Sequence record: PZ445432.1
Origin: a phage
Reading direction: 5' to 3' (one strand)
DNA length: 64,000 nt
A program made the translations under genes and the position numbers. The notes beneath the pieces were generated by a model. It saw only the letters and a program-made list of their open reading frames with translations. It was not told the origin of the DNA and made no database searches. Numbering within the stretch: position 1 is the stretch's first letter; each line of letters begins with the position of its first letter. Below, piece by piece: positions 16,897 to 43,746 of the stretch.

Positions 16897-17091
16897 TTAG
16901 ACACTTAAAATACTTCTAATCTCTTCTATATACTTATCTACTTTTTTAGCATCTATTTTACTTAGTTTTCCTATATCAAAATCAGGATCAGTCAAATATC
17001 TTGCCATAAATTTTACTTGTTTAGCTGAAAGTTGACCCTTATTCCACTTTTTAATTTTACCATAACATACCCAATATTCTTTATTCATCAT
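16897..17091 (-). CDS. hypothetical protein
   Basis: 64-aa basic ORF. Confidence 0.4.
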   Translation of the reverse strand: MMNKEYWVCYGKIKKWNKGQLSAKQVKFMARYLTDPDFDIGKLSKIDAKKVDKYIEEIRSILSV

Positions 17092-17473
17092 TTAGTCCCG
17101 AAACATAAATCCCAACACGGTTTAATTGTTCTTTGGCTTCTTTGAGAATATCTGGAGTGTACTCCCAAATATCATCTTCCACCTGTAAAAGATGGGGCGA
17201 ACAACCGTCATCGGGCACACGACATATGGCCAAACCACGTGGATGGAACAAAGAGAAATTTAGTGCAACAATTAAACCCATAGCAGACAACTCATTCCAA
17301 TCCAATTCCCATTCCCTAGCGTAGCCTGATAGGAAAACACCAATACAGGGATCGTCTATTTGCTGCTCCGGAAAAGTAAAGGAGGCTTGTCTTACCCCCA
17401 ACCAACGTTGTAGCAGCTTCTCCGCACGCTTCACCAAACTAGGATCAATCTGACGCCAATATACTTGTTCCAT
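17081..17473 (-). CDS. hypothetical protein, paralog A of a tandem pair
   Basis: Shares PCIG ... W.ELD.MGL..ALN..LF.P with the adjacent 17483-17911 ORF. Confidence 0.5.
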   Translation of the reverse strand: MEQVYWRQIDPSLVKRAEKLLQRWLGVRQASFTFPEQQIDDPCIGVFLSGYAREWELDWNELSAMGLIVALNFSLFHPRGLAICRVPDDGCSPHLLQVEDDIWEYTPDILKEAKEQLNRVGIYVSGLNDE

Positions 17474-17482
17474 TGTGCCACC

Positions 17483-17911
17483 TTAGGCAGTTAAACCAGG
17501 AATTTGATAACCAAAACGACGAAGTTTCTGGATACCATCATTTACTTCTTCCGGTGAGTAAGACCAACCGTAATGTTCATCAACTTGAAAGCCAGGAGAT
17601 TCACTGGTTTTATAGTTAACAACAATACGGTGTTTATTGGGCATAAATAGCTTATAGTTTAATGCAAAAACCAACCCCATTTCATCCAGCTCTTTCCAGC
17701 CGACAATCTCTTCCAGACCATCCTCTACCTGCACAACTAGACCAATACACGGGGCCTCATCAATATCATCTTTAAAAGCAAAGGAGATTTCATTATTTTC
17801 ACACCATATTTTCAAGGAGTTAATAGTCTCATTATACAGGCTAGCTGGGAGAGTACGCCAGAAGTTAACCAAAATTGGATTAGCTTCTTTAGAGAATACA
17901 TTATTGAACAT
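17483..17911 (-). CDS. hypothetical protein, paralog B of a tandem pair
   Basis: Same conserved blocks as the 17081-17473 ORF. Confidence 0.5.
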   Translation of the reverse strand: MFNNVFSKEANPILVNFWRTLPASLYNETINSLKIWCENNEISFAFKDDIDEAPCIGLVVQVEDGLEEIVGWKELDEMGLVFALNYKLFMPNKHRIVVNYKTSESPGFQVDEHYGWSYSPEEVNDGIQKLRRFGYQIPGLTA

Positions 17912-17913
17912 AT

Positions 17914-18420
17914 TTACACCTTAAGTTGTTGTAGGGCTTTACACATTTCAAGATCTGGACTAAATTCTAGCATATAGCTAACAGCCATTAAATCTTGAAG
18001 GTTTATTCCAGTTCTACCGTTGACTATAACCGTTGGATACTGGTACATCATAGCACCAGCGTCATCCAGCACACACCAATGTTTGAGCTTATGCTTTTCA
18101 ACGAAGCGAAGAACAGAATTACCCCTAGATAGCCCACCACCAGTAAAATCCGTTGTACCAAGAAAACGATCAATAAGATCTAATCTGGTCATAATCTGAA
18201 CGTTCTCCATCTCATTCCTGACAGAGAACCATGAAGATACCCCAACAATCATTATTGGAGAAGGACGAATAAAGTCCTGAAAAGCCTTGAGAAGCGGCTT
18301 AAAAACCCAGTCACTTCCAAAGAAAATCTTTTCATCATCAGGTGCATGATGGTGGGAGATGCTCGAATTAAGCACCCCATCGATGTCTAGAAAAATAATT
18401 GGAGTATTACTTATTTCCAT
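17914..18420 (-). CDS. HAD-superfamily phosphatase-like protein
   Basis: N-terminal FLDIDGVL (HAD motif I, DxDx[TV]) and a later LDDAG segment. Confidence 0.55.
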   Translation of the reverse strand: MEISNTPIIFLDIDGVLNSSISHHHAPDDEKIFFGSDWVFKPLLKAFQDFIRPSPIMIVGVSSWFSVRNEMENVQIMTRLDLIDRFLGTTDFTGGGLSRGNSVLRFVEKHKLKHWCVLDDAGAMMYQYPTVIVNGRTGINLQDLMAVSYMLEFSPDLEMCKALQQLKV

Positions 18421-18589
18421 TTCTGTTCCTTTCTAAGAACGTATCATACTCAACCGTATCAACATATATGACACCATAGTCATCGGATTTATAGTCCATT
18501 TCCCATAGCTCACATCGATAGCACCAACTACCATCCGCCCATACAAATATATCATCGGGATGTGTATACACAGATTTAACTATGGACAT
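18407..18589 (-). CDS. hypothetical protein
   Basis: 60-aa ORF overlapping both neighbours. Confidence 0.35.
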   Translation of the reverse strand: MSIVKSVYTHPDDIFVWADGSWCYRCELWEMDYKSDDYGVIYVDTVEYDTFLERNRNGNK

Positions 18590-19404
18590 ATTTGTTTTCC
18601 CGGCATATAAGGTCTACCCTCTAGATGAGCTTCTACACGAGCAATAAAACCAGGATCACTGAAAGCATCTACTGCACCTTTACTCCAGTAAGGAATACCA
18701 CGATCTTCCAGTTGGTACATATCACTACGAGTCATACCTTGATAGCCTGGTTTCGACGCTAGGGCACTATCATAGTAGTTAACTACCATAAGTTTCGCAG
18801 CAGTCCGATTAAGAACAGGGAATAGTTCCCAGTAGAAGTTAATTACTTGGTTAGAGCAACCAACTACAACGATCATATCTTGACTGGTAATACCATCAAA
18901 AATATTGTACATTTCTGCGTACGCTGGAGCATGCTCACCAAAAAAGATTACATTAGGTTTAACCCATTTATAATCATCTGGGTCAATAGAGTTATACCCA
19001 ACATCAATAACCCGTTTATTACTACTATTGTAGCTATCAGCTACAACAACCTCTTTTAAATATCCGTGAATGTGCAGAATATCACTATGTGGAACGCCAG
19101 CACGCTCAATAAGGTCATCAACGTTGGTAGTCAAGTTTACTACTTGACCCGGATATTTCTTATACCATTCACCAATACGCAAGTGTGCAAGATTAGGTTC
19201 AACAGTTTCTAACTCTTCACGCCGCTTGTTGTAAAACATATGGGTTTTATGATAAAAGTTACCACGAAAGGCGTGAATATTACATACTTCTTCTAGATCA
19301 TAATCATCCCACAGTGCTTTACCACTAGCAGTATCGGTACGAAAAGCTCGTACACCACTTTCAACGCTCAAACCTGCACCGCTAATAATAATTAATCTAC
19401 GCAC
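18580..19404 (-). CDS. Sir2 (sirtuin)-family NAD-dependent enzyme
   Basis: SGAGLSVESGVRAFR, TTNVDDL, HG and PNVIFFGE sirtuin motifs; no zinc-ribbon CxxC pairs seen. Confidence 0.7.
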   Translation of the reverse strand: MRRLIIISGAGLSVESGVRAFRTDTASGKALWDDYDLEEVCNIHAFRGNFYHKTHMFYNKRREELETVEPNLAHLRIGEWYKKYPGQVVNLTTNVDDLIERAGVPHSDILHIHGYLKEVVVADSYNSSNKRVIDVGYNSIDPDDYKWVKPNVIFFGEHAPAYAEMYNIFDGITSQDMIVVVGCSNQVINFYWELFPVLNRTAAKLMVVNYYDSALASKPGYQGMTRSDMYQLEDRGIPYWSKGAVDAFSDPGFIARVEAHLEGRPYMPGKQICP

Positions 19405-19598: not shown

Positions 19599-19791
19599 AA
19601 AGTTTCTCCTCTAGTCCCATAATACGATTTTCATAAGAAGCACGCAACTTTTCAATTGCCAGCGCACGCACTGTAACCTCATTAGAATTAATAGCTAACT
19701 GGGCCAGATCTTCTGTTTCCATACGTCCGTTGTAAATTAAGCGATATTTAAGGTGTTTCACATTCTTGGTCATTATTAAACTCCACTGCAA
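19567..19791 (-). CDS. hypothetical protein
   Basis: 74-aa ORF. Confidence 0.4.
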   Translation of the reverse strand: MQWSLIMTKNVKHLKYRLIYNGRMETEDLAQLAINSNEVTVRALAIEKLRASYENRIMGLEEKLYGLLESESKK

Positions 19792-20146
19792 CTGTTTCTA
19801 GGTCTTCGTCAAAAAAACTAGAGTATGTATCTTTAAGATACTGTTTAATACTCCAAGTAATATCTTCGTATCCATCTGGACTACGTTGGTATACTTTTAA
19901 CACTCTATTATACACAAATTCAAGATTACATTTTACTTCATCTCTGTCTTCATCAAACAAGCAATATGGGTTATATGGCGATACATCTAGATTTGTTTCC
20001 ACCCAATCACCAATAACGGTGGGGTATCCAGCACCATCTATATGAGAGTAATCACCTGTGGCAGCAAAGACAGCCTCAGCAATATCATCCACGCCCAGAT
20101 GGAAATCACCACATGTAGATTCAACTATATAGGGCTTTAATTCCAT
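19748..20146 (-). CDS. hypothetical protein
   Basis: 132-aa acidic ORF downstream of the promoter at 20175-20203. Confidence 0.45.
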   Translation of the reverse strand: MELKPYIVESTCGDFHLGVDDIAEAVFAATGDYSHIDGAGYPTVIGDWVETNLDVSPYNPYCLFDEDRDEVKCNLEFVYNRVLKVYQRSPDGYEDITWSIKQYLKDTYSSFFDEDLETVAVEFNNDQECETP

Positions 20147-20245: not shown

Positions 20246-22072
20246 TTACTTAAGATTTAAGTGTTTTACTCTACCAAGAACTTCTTTTTGTTTCCCAGAA
20301 TTGAAAGGCCTACTGCTAGGGGATCCCAAGTACCCGCAAACCCTACGTGTAACCTCTATTTCTTCAGACCCACAACTCGGACATACAAACCCACGTTCAG
20401 AGGCAACAGATTCACCCATATACCCACAGTTGAAGCACTCATCAATTGGTATATTAACACCAATATAATGGCTACATTCTAGCCCCTTATCCACCACATA
20501 CTCAAGAGCTTTGTGGAACTTTTTCATTTGAGGTAGTTCCACAAATGATATATTACCACCATTAGCTATTTTGGTAAAATGAGCCTCGTACTCAAATTTA
20601 GTATCTGGGGCTACCTTCTCTCTTACGTCCAAATGGTGACTATTAGTGAGATAGCCTTTATCTGTTAGCCAAGAATACTCTGGGAATCTACGTTCTAGTA
20701 ATTTATTAAAACGATTACATAGAGACTCACTAGGAGTAGCGTATAAGCTAAATCCAAGATTAGTCTCATTAGCTTTAACTTCGCAACGATTTTTTAGGTG
20801 AGTAAGAACTTCTTCTGTAAATTCAATACAATCCCTATGGGTTTGTGGTAGACCAAACATTATTTGGCACATCTCATAGACCCCAATGTATCCAAGAGAT
20901 ACAGAAGATCTACCCTCAAAAATAGGCCATACATACTCTTCCCCATCTAAACGCACACCAAAACCACCGTGCATATAAAGAATAGGGGCTTGTTTAGCCT
21001 TAACTTTCTTCAGTCTGTTTAAGAAGAAGTCATGCGCTTCAAAAGCCTCATCCACATATTTGTCTAGAATATCCCAGAAATCTTCAAAAACCCCATCTGC
21101 CTCAGCAGCAACCATAGGTAGATTAATAGACACTACACCTAAATTATTGCGCCCTGCAATTTCTCCGGAGGGGATAGCAGATAAAAAGCTACGACAACCC
21201 ATAGGTGCTTTAAAATCACCAGTAACAGCTACAACTTTCTCATAGCTTAAATAGTCCGGGTACATACGGGTAGCAGAACACTCAAGTGCTAGCTGTTTTA
21301 TATCGTAGTTAGGATCGCCTGGATTTTTATTTAACCCTTCTTTAACTGAGAATACTAGTTTAGGGAAGATAGGGGTTGACTCAGCAGCACCTAAACCTTT
21401 AATACGGTTTTGGAGGATGGCTTTCTGAATCATCCTTTCCTCCCACTCCTGTCCTAGCCCAAAGCCAAGCGTAACAAAAGGAGTCTGTCCATTAGAGTTA
21501 AATAATGAATTAGTTTCATACTCTAGGGCTTGGAATGCGTCATAACACTCTTTTTCAGTGAGTTCAGTAGCATATACAGCAGCTTTCCTTTCATCCTTGA
21601 GCCAACGTAGACCACGACCCAGGTGCTTATCATAAGACTTTCTGACATAAGGGGCTAAAACCTCATCGATACGATCAATAGAAGTGCCACCATACTGAGC
21701 ACCAGATACTTGGGCAATAATCTGAGCAGTGATTGCACATGCAGTAGTTATGGATTTAGGAGTTTCAATATTTGCATTACCAATTTTAGTACCATTCTTC
21801 AGCATGCCACCAAGGTCTACTAAACAACAGTTAGTGTATCCCTGTGCCCTGTAATCCATATCATGGATGTGTATTTTACCTAGATTATGGGAGTCTAATA
21901 GATGTTTAGGTAATTCTTGTGCTACTAAATACTTGTTGATTTCTCCAGCTAATAAGTCTCTTTGGGTATGGAACATCTCACTAGGCTTATTAGCATTATT
22001 ATGTTGTAAGTCCTTATCAGCAGTTAGAGTGAGCAGGCCTTTGCAATTCTCAATTAATTCATTCTCTGTCAT
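20246..22072 (-). CDS. nrdD: anaerobic ribonucleoside-triphosphate reductase
   Basis: 608-aa ORF with a C-terminal glycyl-radical motif (RVCGYLG) and C-terminal CxxC zinc site. Confidence 0.85.
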   Translation of the reverse strand: MTENELIENCKGLLTLTADKDLQHNNANKPSEMFHTQRDLLAGEINKYLVAQELPKHLLDSHNLGKIHIHDMDYRAQGYTNCCLVDLGGMLKNGTKIGNANIETPKSITTACAITAQIIAQVSGAQYGGTSIDRIDEVLAPYVRKSYDKHLGRGLRWLKDERKAAVYATELTEKECYDAFQALEYETNSLFNSNGQTPFVTLGFGLGQEWEERMIQKAILQNRIKGLGAAESTPIFPKLVFSVKEGLNKNPGDPNYDIKQLALECSATRMYPDYLSYEKVVAVTGDFKAPMGCRSFLSAIPSGEIAGRNNLGVVSINLPMVAAEADGVFEDFWDILDKYVDEAFEAHDFFLNRLKKVKAKQAPILYMHGGFGVRLDGEEYVWPIFEGRSSVSLGYIGVYEMCQIMFGLPQTHRDCIEFTEEVLTHLKNRCEVKANETNLGFSLYATPSESLCNRFNKLLERRFPEYSWLTDKGYLTNSHHLDVREKVAPDTKFEYEAHFTKIANGGNISFVELPQMKKFHKALEYVVDKGLECSHYIGVNIPIDECFNCGYMGESVASERGFVCPSCGSEEIEVTRRVCGYLGSPSSRPFNSGKQKEVLGRVKHLNLK

Positions 22073-32443: not shown

Positions 32444-32626
32444 ATGCCAGTATCTAAAAATGTTCGTAAAAATGGTAAGAAAGCTACTCGTAATCTGGGT
32501 ATCCGTCGTATGGCCGAACGTCAATCAGGTGTCCAGAAAATCTTTGATCTGTTAAATCGTGCTAATCCTAAAATTGATAACAGTAATGATACTGTTCTGC
32601 GCACTCTGCTGGCAATTGGTCTGTAA
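32444..32626 (+). CDS. hypothetical small basic protein
   Basis: 60-aa ORF downstream of a promoter-leader cassette. Confidence 0.45.
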   Translation: MPVSKNVRKNGKKATRNLGIRRMAERQSGVQKIFDLLNRANPKIDNSNDTVLRTLLAIGL

Positions 32627-39120: not shown

Positions 39121-39193
39121 GGGGTGTAATCGAATTGGCATAGGTACTGTACTTAAAATTCAGGTTTTGTGGGTTCGAATCCCAGCGAGGCGT
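39121..39193 (+). tRNA. tRNA-like element (anticodon-like loop TAA; acceptor stem does not pair)
   Basis: Good T-arm (GTGGG-TTCGAAT-CCCAG) and anticodon-like hairpin CTGTA-CTTAAAA-TTCAG, but no 5'/3' acceptor pairing found; a -10 TATAAT lies upstream. Confidence 0.25.
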
Positions 39194-41351: not shown

Positions 41352-41519
41352 ATGTTTAAACTGTTAGTAGTTATCTGGTATAGTCAATCAAATAGAGCGA
41401 ATACCTCCCACGTTATAGACTTTACTACTAAAAATGAAGCTGAAAAAGCATATGCTAATTTAATAGAACGCAATAAAGAATCTCGTAGTATAGTTTATGA
41501 AGTGACTAAACTTTATTAA
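41352..41519 (+). CDS. hypothetical protein
   Basis: ATG with RBS AAGGAC just after the tRNA; the track ORF begins earlier, inside the tRNA. Confidence 0.4.
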   Translation: MFKLLVVIWYSQSNRANTSHVIDFTTKNEAEKAYANLIERNKESRSIVYEVTKLY

Positions 41520-41527
41520 AAATTCAT

Positions 41528-41556
41528 TTGCTTTCCCTCTTATTTATTGTTATAAT
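41528..41556 (+). promoter_or_regulatory. sigma70-like promoter
   Basis: TTGCTT, 17 nt, TATAAT. Confidence 0.5.
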
Positions 41557-41586
41557 ATTTATATAAATTAATGAGAGGGAAACCAA

Positions 41587-41877
41587 ATGAAACGTTATCT
41601 TTCTGTTATGTTCCAAACCGGCGGCCAAAGATACACCTATGAATTTCCACCTTCCTGGAAAATCAGGGAAGGTGATCAAATAGTTGTGTTGACACCGCGT
41701 GAAGAATATAAAGTAGTGACGGTTAAACAAGTATTTCCAAAAGATCATGAACCAGCTATAGGCATCCGATATAAGATGATTCATGGCGTGGTTCGTCAAG
41801 TACCACGAACTGAGGTAGAAGTAGATAATACTGGAGAAACTAAATTCCATTATACTTCTTACTTAGACAGTGTGTGA
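41587..41877 (+). CDS. hypothetical protein
   Basis: 96-aa ORF directly after a promoter-leader cassette. Confidence 0.5.
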   Translation: MKRYLSVMFQTGGQRYTYEFPPSWKIREGDQIVVLTPREEYKVVTVKQVFPKDHEPAIGIRYKMIHGVVRQVPRTEVEVDNTGETKFHYTSYLDSV

Positions 41878-41892
41878 TGTAAATATTTTAAT

Positions 41893-41969
41893 GCTTCGGT
41901 AGCTTAGCGATCTAAAGCACTCGGCTGATAACCGAGAGATCAGGGGTTTAAATCCCTCCCGGAGTACCA
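41893..41969 (+). tRNA. tRNA-Ile (anticodon GAT)
   Basis: Acceptor GCTTCGG/CCGGAGT, D stem GCTT/AAGC, anticodon stem CTCGG/CCGAG with loop CTGATAA, T-loop TTTAAAT, encoded CCA. Confidence 0.65.
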
Positions 41970-42065
41970 AATCTAGGAATTAAGACTATGCGTCCAGGAA
42001 AGTTTAAAAAAGCTAGTTGGTCTAAAGAGTACAAAGAATACTTACTTAGCCTAGTAAAACGTAAT

Positions 42066-42141
42066 AGTTAGTTGGCAGAGTGGTTATGCGCCTCCTTCAT
42101 ACGGAGCGACTACAGTGGTTCAAATCCACTACTAACTACCA
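42066..42141 (+). tRNA. tRNA-Met/Ile2 (anticodon CAT)
   Basis: Acceptor AGTTAGT/ACTAACT, anticodon loop TTCATAC, T-arm AGTGG-TTCAAAT-CCACT, encoded CCA. Confidence 0.6.
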
Positions 42142-42154
42142 AACAGGAGATCTA

Positions 42155-42523
42155 ATGAAAGCGTATCAAAATCTTAAATCTGGCGTAATTAATATTGTTC
42201 ATAATAATCAGATTATTCAACTGTACTCTAAAGATGGTGAACTTAAACAAAAGGTTCTAGTTGAAGATCTAGATGGTATCACACCTCATTTTGACCCAGA
42301 ATCCTTTCGTGAAGTCAAAGTGGAAGTCGCCCCTCAAATTGAAGGTGGTCAACACCTAAATGTCAATGTGTTAAGTCGTGATCAGCTTTTGGATGCGCAG
42401 AAACATCCTGAAAAATACCCTCAATTAACTATCCGTGTTTCAGGGTACGCTGTGCGTTTTAACGCACTGACGCGTGAACAGCAGAACGACGTTATTAGTC
42501 GTACATTTACTCAGGCGATGTAA
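42155..42523 (+). CDS. grcA: autonomous glycyl-radical cofactor (GrcA/YfiD-like)
   Basis: C-terminus [12 protein letters not shown] ... [37 protein letters not shown] closely matches the GrcA/pyruvate formate-lyase glycyl-radical domain; RBS AGGAGA. Confidence 0.8.
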
Positions 42524-42604
42524 TGGGGCTTGGATACGGTTTCTACGAACTACGTAAGGTAGTCGAGCAAACTCCATTTATCTCCCAAGTTTTAGGAGAA
42601 ATGT

Positions 42605-42919
42605 GTGGATCGAGCATTAAGACGTCATCACCGGCAACGTGTAAAGAACAACCGCAAGAAGTATTGGACAGTCTTCCCACATGAAGAAAGCCCTAAACGG
42701 TTAGGTATTATCACTACTACTCCTTGTATCTGTTCTTGTTGGATGTGCGGGAACCCTCGCAAACACTTTAAGAATAGTAAAGCAGGGATGAAAACCTCGG
42801 AGATTAGGAAAATGGAAGCAATGATTACGGATATTTCAAATGATGAATTTGATGGCTTCGTAGGATTCGGGGAAGATATTAGCTCGGACTGTTTCGAAGA
42901 TGAGCTCCCAGGTCTATGA
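42605..42919 (+). CDS. hypothetical protein
   Basis: GTG start 6 nt after AGGAG; basic N-terminus and a CxCxC segment. Confidence 0.4.
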   Translation: MDRALRRHHRQRVKNNRKKYWTVFPHEESPKRLGIITTTPCICSCWMCGNPRKHFKNSKAGMKTSEIRKMEAMITDISNDEFDGFVGFGEDISSDCFEDELPGL

Positions 42920-42928
42920 TTAATAACA

Positions 42929-42966
42929 AACCCCAGCTATTGAATAAGTAGTCTGGGGTTTTTCTG
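42929..42966 (+). terminator. rho-independent terminator
   Basis: ACCCCAG ... CTGGGGT hairpin followed by TTTTTCTG. Confidence 0.55.
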
Positions 42967-43040
42967 TATACAGGTAGATAATTTATGTATAATAAAATTC
43001 ATCCACATTAGGTTAATTCAAAAGACTTAATGGAGGTAAT

Positions 43041-43388
43041 ATGAGCCGTACTTATCGTAGACAAACTGGTGATCAGTGGTGGAAGTCTAAAGCTAATTAC
43101 ACCCAGGGATATACTTTCCTCAAAGCAAGTGACTACTACATTCGTGTTACTTATGCTAAATCCTGGGATGAGGTAGAACAGGAAATGGAAGAAGCAACCA
43201 TTCGTAATGAGAAAAAGGATGGTTATAGCTGGAATTCTGTTAGTAAGAATGTTAAGTGGCATTCTAATAAAATGGTTCGTCAAGGAAATCGTCAAGAACT
43301 CCACCGCGTGATGAAAGACCCAGAAAATTACGACTATAATCGCGATCATGACATGCGTAAGCGTGGGTTACGGTGGTGCTATGACTAA
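43041..43388 (+). CDS. hypothetical protein
   Basis: 115-aa ORF with RBS GGAGG. Confidence 0.45.
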   Translation: MSRTYRRQTGDQWWKSKANYTQGYTFLKASDYYIRVTYAKSWDEVEQEMEEATIRNEKKDGYSWNSVSKNVKWHSNKMVRQGNRQELHRVMKDPENYDYNRDHDMRKRGLRWCYD

Positions 43389-43405
43389 ATTCTGAAATAA
43401 TTCAT

Positions 43406-43434
43406 TTGCTAAACCTCTCTTTTCTTGCTATAAT
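43406..43434 (+). promoter_or_regulatory. sigma70-like promoter
   Basis: TTGCTA, 17 nt, TATAAT. Confidence 0.5.
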
Positions 43435-43464
43435 ATATTTATAAATTGATGAGAGAGGTTTGAA

Positions 43465-43746
43465 ATGAAAACTCGTCTAGACTGTGCTGTTCATGTTCTT
43501 GAACATGATGTTGTGGGAACCTGTATGTCTTATCACGAAGCAGGTCGTTTAATTAAAGAACGTGTGGCAGATGTATGTGGGTTGAAGATTACTGCTGAGG
43601 AAGCTGATGATCTTCTAGACCAGGCACTGGGGAAAACAGAAATATTCCTCTGCGATTCCTGCTCCTGGTGGTGTGAAGCTCACGAACATTCCTTCAACGA
43701 TTATGATGTATGCCGTGACTGTAATGAGGGGGACCATGATGAATAA
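43465..43746 (+). CDS. hypothetical Cys-rich protein
   Basis: 93-aa ORF with CDSCSWWCEAH and CRDCNEGDH segments. Confidence 0.45.
   Translation: MKTRLDCAVHVLEHDVVGTCMSYHEAGRLIKERVADVCGLKITAEEADDLLDQALGKTEIFLCDSCSWWCEAHEHSFNDYDVCRDCNEGDHDE

Follow-up and report, generated by a model that had tools for sequence, protein, structure and literature searches.

The closest described relatives of the gene reported here encode the phage T4 protein Y06I (Vs.6) and the E. coli protein YfiD (GrcA), which, as the work of Wagner et al. (2001) is recounted in PMC8683613, are autonomous glycyl-radical cofactors: the activase of pyruvate formate-lyase (PFL) places a radical on Y06I or YfiD, and the activity of oxygen-cleaved PFL is thereby restored (PMC8683613). 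No spare part other than these two has been validated (PMC8683613, PMC13450708). In vivo, the radical passes from G102 of GrcA to C419 of PflB (PMC12338860), an enzyme that uses Cys418 and Cys419 in catalysis (PMC13450708, PMC12338860). A role has been described for a beta-strand of the spare part that duplicates a PFL strand retained in cleaved PFL (PMC13450708, PMC8683613), while YfiD's N-terminal half matters for binding to cleaved PFL (cPFL) and for efficient activation (PMC8683613). Among phages, grcA has been listed as the conserved core marker gene of the Straboviridae (PMC12845203).

The gene described below comes from a T5-like phage. Genes of its kind have been described since 2001, related T5-like genomes already bear the annotation, and it is not new. 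In the literature on phage GrcA and T5-type proteins no experimental test of a T5-type protein was found, nor, in that on phage GrcA, an in vivo test of phage fitness. The present analysis considers how closely this gene matches the two validated spare parts, whether it is maintained by selection, how it is likely to be transcribed and which of several possible roles its conservation argues for.

Results

The gene occupies positions 42155..42523, stop codon included, on the plus strand of the window, the 64,000-nt stretch of phage DNA (record PZ445432.1) that was analysed, and encodes 122 residues between an ATG start codon and a TAA stop codon (42521-42523). From 41500 to 43500 the window agrees at every position with Escherichia phage HildyBeyeler (Bas33; Demerecviridae, Tequintavirus; MZ501074.1; 100% identity), where the gene is bas33_0127, and at ~96% with phage T5, where its counterpart is T5.056; window position 1 corresponds to position 32483 of MZ501074.1. 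A scan of viral contigs gave 30 T5-like loci, and in all 30 the ORF is intact at exactly 122 residues, the protein begins with MKAYQ and the ribosome-binding site keeps its GGAG core. In the window this site is the Shine-Dalgarno sequence AGGAG (42145-42149, plus strand), with the ATG beginning 5 nt downstream. A longer ORF that opens with GTG at 42080 was rejected as the gene because it runs through tRNA-Met (42066-42141) and because all 30 loci begin with MKAYQ. The gene is standalone, with tRNA-Met on its 5′ side and a separate, overlapping ORF on its 3′ side.

The names given to this gene in GenBank vary considerably. In HildyBeyeler it is a 'putative formate acetyltransferase', in T5 a 'pyruvate formate-lyase related protein', in DT57C and Gostya9 a 'putative autonomous glycyl radical cofactor GrcA' and in VAH1 an 'autonomous glycyl radical cofactor', and 'glycyl radical cofactor' is also in use. 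The first of these is a misnomer, since the PFL model TIGR01255 is matched only over the last 63 of its 744 positions (682-744; 86.3 bits, cutoff 994) and the protein, which is devoid of cysteine, is not an enzyme of ~760 residues. The misleading product name of the HildyBeyeler gene could be corrected.

The initial annotation had claimed that the C-terminal ~60 residues match the glycyl-radical domain of GrcA and PFL, RVSGY motif included, and this was borne out by alignment and by profile searches. The domain comprises residues 61-122 (42335..42520, plus strand), which correspond to PflB 698-759 and GrcA 66-127, and in ungapped alignment of these 62 residues 48 are identical in GrcA, 49 in PflB and 49 in T4 Vs.6. 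The protein matches the Pfam family Gly_radical (PF01228) with E = 3.8e-18 (66.4 bits; cutoff 22.2), and its top NCBIfam match is the GrcA equivalog TIGR04365 (E = 2.5e-35). A search of the PDB returned GrcA/YfiD (6owr, E = 2e-30, over residues 50-121 of the phage protein) and PFL (1h16, E = 4.7e-27, residues 61-122 against PflB 698-759). The match to phrog_1209, the T4 Vs.6-type family of PHROG, extends over the full length of the protein (residues 1-122 against 1-121 of 121, E = 6.9e-48).

The motif RVSGY itself spans residues 94-98; its radical glycine, Gly97 (codon 42443-42445, plus strand), is conserved throughout an alignment of 26 homologues. The heptad RVSGYAV (residues 94-100; 42434..42454, plus strand) is present exactly, and its columns are invariant in the same 26 proteins. 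This heptad is the minimal peptide substrate of the PFL activase (PFL-AE), its recognition sequence. The ten residues of a strand at positions 63-72 are the same letters in GrcA, PflB and T4 Vs.6, and the alignment of 26 GrcA-type proteins from phages and bacteria has 39 invariant columns, every one of which is present in the protein studied here. The host proteins differ from its C-terminus at 13-14 of the 62 residues, so that it may plausibly, but not certainly, be compatible with PflA and PflB of E. coli.

Against TIGR04365 the phage protein scores 121.5 bits, below the curated equivalog cutoff of 170 bits, which E. coli GrcA passes (233.9 bits) and T4 Vs.6 fails (153.3 bits). The cutoff is a threshold for bacterial annotation and not a biological criterion, since it excludes the validated T4 Vs.6.

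The N-terminal half (residues 1-60; 42155..42334, plus strand) has diverged and is homologous to the N-terminal halves of T4 Vs.6 and, more weakly, of bacterial GrcAs. Aligned to that of T4 Vs.6 it scores 50, compared with 22 +/- 4.5 for shuffled sequences (z ~6), and only 2 of 2000 shuffles reach that score; the similarity to the N-terminal region of E. coli GrcA (1-60 against 1-65) is weak (z ~3.2; 23 of 2000 shuffles reach it). Searched alone against PHROG, the N-terminal half gave no match. The idea that it is absent from bacteria was ruled out by Vibrio GrcAs from a large protein database, which align over 80-86% of the query, and the N-terminal half is therefore a diverged GrcA N-terminus and no invention of the phage.

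In the AlphaFold2 (AF2) model the C-terminal domain is predicted to form a helix, a beta-hairpin and a helix, for which the top Foldseek matches are YfiD (6owr) and PFL (2pfl). Confidence is low for residues 59-71 (pLDDT below 50), which cover most of the strand at 63-72. The N-terminal half is modelled as a beta-sheet with pLDDT ~80, and the predicted N-terminal domain has no significant fold match in the PDB (Foldseek). A phage-specific folded domain was considered for this half and is unsupported, as an E. coli-type GrcA run as a control gave the same sheet with pLDDT ~90. Since the sheet also appears in the control and the N-terminal half of GrcA/YfiD is disordered in solution by NMR (PMC8683613), no phage-specific structural claim is justified.

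Among the 30 T5-like loci there are 29 distinct alleles, which vary at 93 nucleotide sites; 71 of these sites fall in the third position of a codon. The dN/dS ratio is 0.069 for the whole gene, 0.111 for the N-terminal half (1-60) and 0.017 for the C-terminal half (61-122). Both halves are maintained by purifying selection.

The gene is also widespread. A tblastn search of 50,697 phage records found a homologue in 1586, with an identity of 80% or more in 435 of these. Most of the others are 50-70% identical and belong to T4-like phages (Straboviridae) and jumbo phages, whose hosts include Escherichia, Klebsiella, Salmonella, Yersinia, Aeromonas and others; T4 Vs.6 is among the phage homologues listed. 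Shorter glycyl-radical ORFs of 80-85 residues, of the GrcA2/GrcA3 type, occur in unrelated viral contigs (L040, 1-243; L043, 1429-1686), with the loop variants RVSGYAVNF and RVSGYCVAF. Spare-part genes are thus found in more phage groups than the T4-like and T5-like ones.

Among bacteria, the query has matches in every one of 5426 complete E. coli genomes (median, three places per genome), and the best of the matches listed are pflB or tdcE; grcA is present in all 5426. At the DNA level the phage gene is ~74% identical to the 3′ end of host pflB and no closer to grcA (no record above the 60-80% band), and it lies as far from GrcA as from PflB. An identity of ~74% marks the T5-type gene as an old, maintained, independent lineage and not as a recent pickup. 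A mixture of another kind was observed in the protein cluster P0113 (900 member sequences), in which a GrcA combines an E. coli-type N-terminal half with a PflB-type C-terminal tail (…TKEQQQDVITRTFTQSM). This tail suggests recombination between bacterial grcA and pflB, or else a chimera of assembly.

The grcA-like gene lies in a transcription unit that would begin at a sigma-70 promoter, TTGCTT-N17-TATAAT (41528..41556, plus strand), homologous to the annotated promoter P11 of T5 (NC_005859) and the probable start of the unit. The first listed member of this P11-like unit is an ORF at 41587-41877 (plus strand), followed by tRNA-Ile, tRNA-Met(CAU) (42066..42141, plus strand) and the grcA-like gene, whose coding sequence lies 13 nt downstream of tRNA-Met. 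In 27 of the 30 related loci, too, the nearest upstream tRNA is tRNA-Met. Downstream there are two small ORFs on the plus strand, one directly after the gene and overlapping it (42523-42684) and a second, the homologue of T5.055, at 42605-42919 (annotated as 42743-42919). The unit is closed by a rho-independent terminator (42928..42963, plus strand; -19 kcal/mol, z -4.9, then a U-run) homologous to an annotated terminator of T5. A generic promoter scan missed both promoter and terminator, which came to light through alignment with the T5 annotation and through folding. From this arrangement we infer that the grcA-like gene and the tRNA cluster are transcribed together, under a strong sigma-70 promoter that lies in what is annotated in T5 as the early region; its early expression would follow from the annotation of T5.

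The tRNA cluster differs in length between the window and its nearest relative. The window is without 5,041 bp of the cluster that are present in MZ501074.1 (~71667-76707), which is otherwise the identical phage, and ARAGORN places 10 tRNAs in it, where the annotation of the matching part of MZ501074.1 has 24. The junction (window 39164-39185) falls in a 14-nt microhomology, GGGTTCGAATCCCA, of a tRNA T-arm, where tRNA-Leu(TTA), reduced to its 5′ part, runs on into the 3′ end of a different tRNA-like sequence. Recombination between tRNA repeats seems to have deleted the missing segment, unless the two sequences are alternative assemblies, and the difference leaves the grcA-like finding untouched.

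A second glycyl-radical protein is encoded in the window, as the initial annotation had said. This is NrdD, the class III ribonucleotide reductase (20246..22072), which lies on the minus strand, matches PF13597 (E = 5.9e-158) and PF01228 (E = 8e-14) and has its own RRVCGY motif. The accompanying claim that the window encodes no recognisable NrdG or PflA activase likewise held, and it extends to the whole genome of 111.6 kb. With T4 NrdG and E. coli PflA as queries, tblastn against the window and against the reconstructed 111,607-bp genome gave nothing better than E = 0.9, compared with 5e-20 for E. coli pflA as the positive control, and there is no activase annotation in the GenBank record. 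The absence of an NrdG- or PflA-like activase from window and genome points soundly to a dependence on host activases. It also follows a published pattern, in which phages, T5 included, carry nrdD and nrdAB without nrdG, an arrangement that is common in phages (PMC3653736).

Two ORFs were considered as candidate activases and rejected. Among ORFs of at least 50 residues in the whole genome, CxxxCxxC occurs solely in the small T5.055 homologue (as the ORF 42596-42916), which combines a basic N-terminus with a cysteine cluster (CICSCWMCGNPRK) and has no Pfam match; at 58-104 residues it is too small for a radical-SAM activase, the queries being 156-246 residues long. The other, an ORF of 132 residues (19748-20146, minus strand), is situated immediately downstream of nrdD, where nrdG sits in many operons, but has neither a Pfam match nor a radical-SAM cysteine motif and belongs to phrog_11748, a family of unknown function. 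Downstream of nrdD there is also an accessory block beside nucleotide-metabolism genes (17081-17911, 17914-18420 and 18580-19404, all on the minus strand) that encodes a tandem pair of DUF7415 proteins, a protein with a HAD_SAK_2 domain (the 'Swiss Army Knife' type known from RNA repair) and a member of the Sir2 family.

Discussion

The interpretation put forward in the initial annotation, a GrcA-like spare part, is supported by these results, with the function of the T5-type protein assigned by homology. Its further proposal that the phage supports the anaerobic metabolism of the host by way of host activases is in keeping with that homology and with the known function of T4 Y06I/Vs.6 (PMC8683613), while placing this activity 'in the gut' is speculative. 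The gene most probably encodes an early-expressed spare part that is activated by host PflA and keeps host PflB working after damage by oxygen. In such a mechanism, Gly97 would receive a glycyl radical from host PflA by means of SAM and reduced flavodoxin, and the activated protein would dock on host PflB molecules whose C-terminal domain has been cut off by oxygen at Gly734, and possibly on TdcE as well. The radical would then be handed to Cys419 of PflB, so that pyruvate would once more yield acetyl-CoA and formate, and the ATP made by acetate kinase would be regained under fluctuating or low oxygen. The phage NrdD would depend in the same manner on host NrdG. What weighs against the PflB mechanism is the score below the GrcA equivalog cutoff, which the validated T4 protein misses too, the weak similarity to E. 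coli GrcA of the N-terminal half, which in YfiD serves binding and activation, and the 13-14 C-terminal residues in which the host proteins differ.

Early in T5 infection the host DNA is degraded and host gene expression is shut off. Because of this shut-off neither PflB nor host GrcA could be made again, and a spare part supplied by the phage would make the PflB already present last longer. If this is correct, the gene is an auxiliary metabolic gene with which a virulent enterobacterial phage sustains fermentative ATP and acetyl-CoA through fluctuations of oxygen after host shut-off.

The same features can be read in other ways, one of which starts from the presence of NrdD. A phage that has NrdD and no NrdG, and in which both NrdD and the small protein carry a glycyl-radical domain, might use the small protein as a spare radical domain for its own reductase, activated by the constitutive host PflA and so bypassing the missing NrdG, and spare parts for other glycyl-radical enzymes have indeed been speculated upon (PMC8683613). 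Such a role is very improbable here, because the radical domain is 79% identical to PflB and resembles the C-terminus of the phage NrdD only at the level of the motif (5/9, score 26), with RVCGY of NrdD standing in a different sequence context. Moreover, T4 has Vs.6 together with NrdD and NrdG, so the gene does not track the absence of NrdG; phages commonly have NrdD and no NrdG (PMC3653736); and what T4 Y06I rescues is PFL (PMC8683613). The occurrence of the grcA-like gene beside NrdD in one phage is suggestive and establishes no functional link, given that T4 combines Vs.6 with its own NrdG and that the T5-type C-terminal domain resembles PflB and not NrdD.

The divergence of the N-terminal half from that of host GrcA would also fit a decoy or inhibitor, one that soaks up host PflA or blocks PflB and in this way re-routes pyruvate or limits formate. 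A mere binder, however, needs neither the catalytic loop nor the strand, the residues of which are all invariant, nor a C-terminal half held at a dN/dS of 0.017. Together with the restoration of activity by the homologue from T4 (PMC8683613), this makes inhibition distinctly improbable. Names such as 'putative formate acetyltransferase' and 'pyruvate formate-lyase related protein' hint instead at a larger enzyme, of which the gene might be a decaying, non-functional fragment captured from host pflB or grcA. That origin is scarcely credible for a gene that is intact at 122 residues in all 30 loci, has most of its variable sites (71 of 93) in third positions at a dN/dS of 0.069, keeps its Shine-Dalgarno sequence and a full-length GrcA-type architecture, and at ~74% DNA identity to host pflB represents an old lineage that has been maintained. 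With selection acting on both halves, decay is effectively refuted, and a functional spare part for host PflB is the reading preferred here.

A variant of the preferred reading is that the T5-type protein has properties toward its partners, or in its regulation, that differ from those of a simple substitute for host GrcA. For example, it could dock on intact, non-activated PflB or TdcE, act independently of residues 696-733 of cPFL or bridge host PflA to another radical acceptor in a phage with no activase of its own. The variant draws on the long divergence of the C-terminal domain (~74% DNA identity, against 98.9% in T4) and on an N-terminal half that has diverged and is yet under selection (dN/dS 0.11), and we regard it as unlikely.

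With the T4 precedent dating from 2001 and homologues in ~1600 phages, the gene introduces no new principle. The enigmatic N-terminus of GrcA is where it may be of wider use, as the variation of this half among T5-type, T4-type and bacterial proteins could help to explain it.

Comparison with known systems

Of the described families, GrcA2 (NF008341) and GrcA3 (NF038360) share with the T5-type protein the radical domain, scoring 116.5 and 90.7 bits, respectively, over residues 61-122. These are proteins of ~80 residues that are without the N-terminal half of ~60 residues, and the T5-type protein falls below their cutoffs of 158 and 145. The corresponding part of PflB (698-759) and TdcE resembles it more closely, with 49 of 62 residues identical (PflB), the same radical loop and an end that reads TFTQAM in the phage protein and TFTQSM in PflB. 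Unlike this part of PflB, however, the phage protein does not belong to an enzyme of 760 residues and has no catalytic barrel with Cys418 and Cys419.

E. coli GrcA (YfiD; 6owr; TIGR04365) is likewise a small standalone protein, with 48 of 62 residues identical in the C-terminal domain, the same predicted C-terminal fold and a weakly homologous N-terminal half. It differs in that the T5-type protein is 5 residues shorter and is without the two-residue insertion 'EV' before the EGGQ strand, and in that the N-terminal halves can barely be aligned (z ~3.2).

The nearest relative is T4 Vs.6, with 120 residues compared with 122 in the T5-type protein. The two share the MKAYQ start, can be aligned over their full length (51.9% identity by tblastn, 61% over aligned columns) and fall together in phrog_1209, and RVSGYAV and the ten-residue strand are identical in both. 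The phages are alike as well, T4 also being a virulent coliphage with NrdD and without PflA, although T4 has NrdG whereas the T5-type phage has none, and the surroundings of the gene are different, in T4 the vs-regB region and in the T5-type phage a tRNA cluster. The two genes differ in their relation to the host. In T4 vs.6 the 5′ half is phage-like, while the 3′ half (L004, 3179-3363) matches E. coli grcA at 98.9% DNA identity and encodes an identical stretch of 60 residues at the C-terminus, which points to a recent mosaic or gene conversion with host grcA. The T5-type gene, in contrast, is only ~74% identical in DNA to the 3′ end of host pflB.
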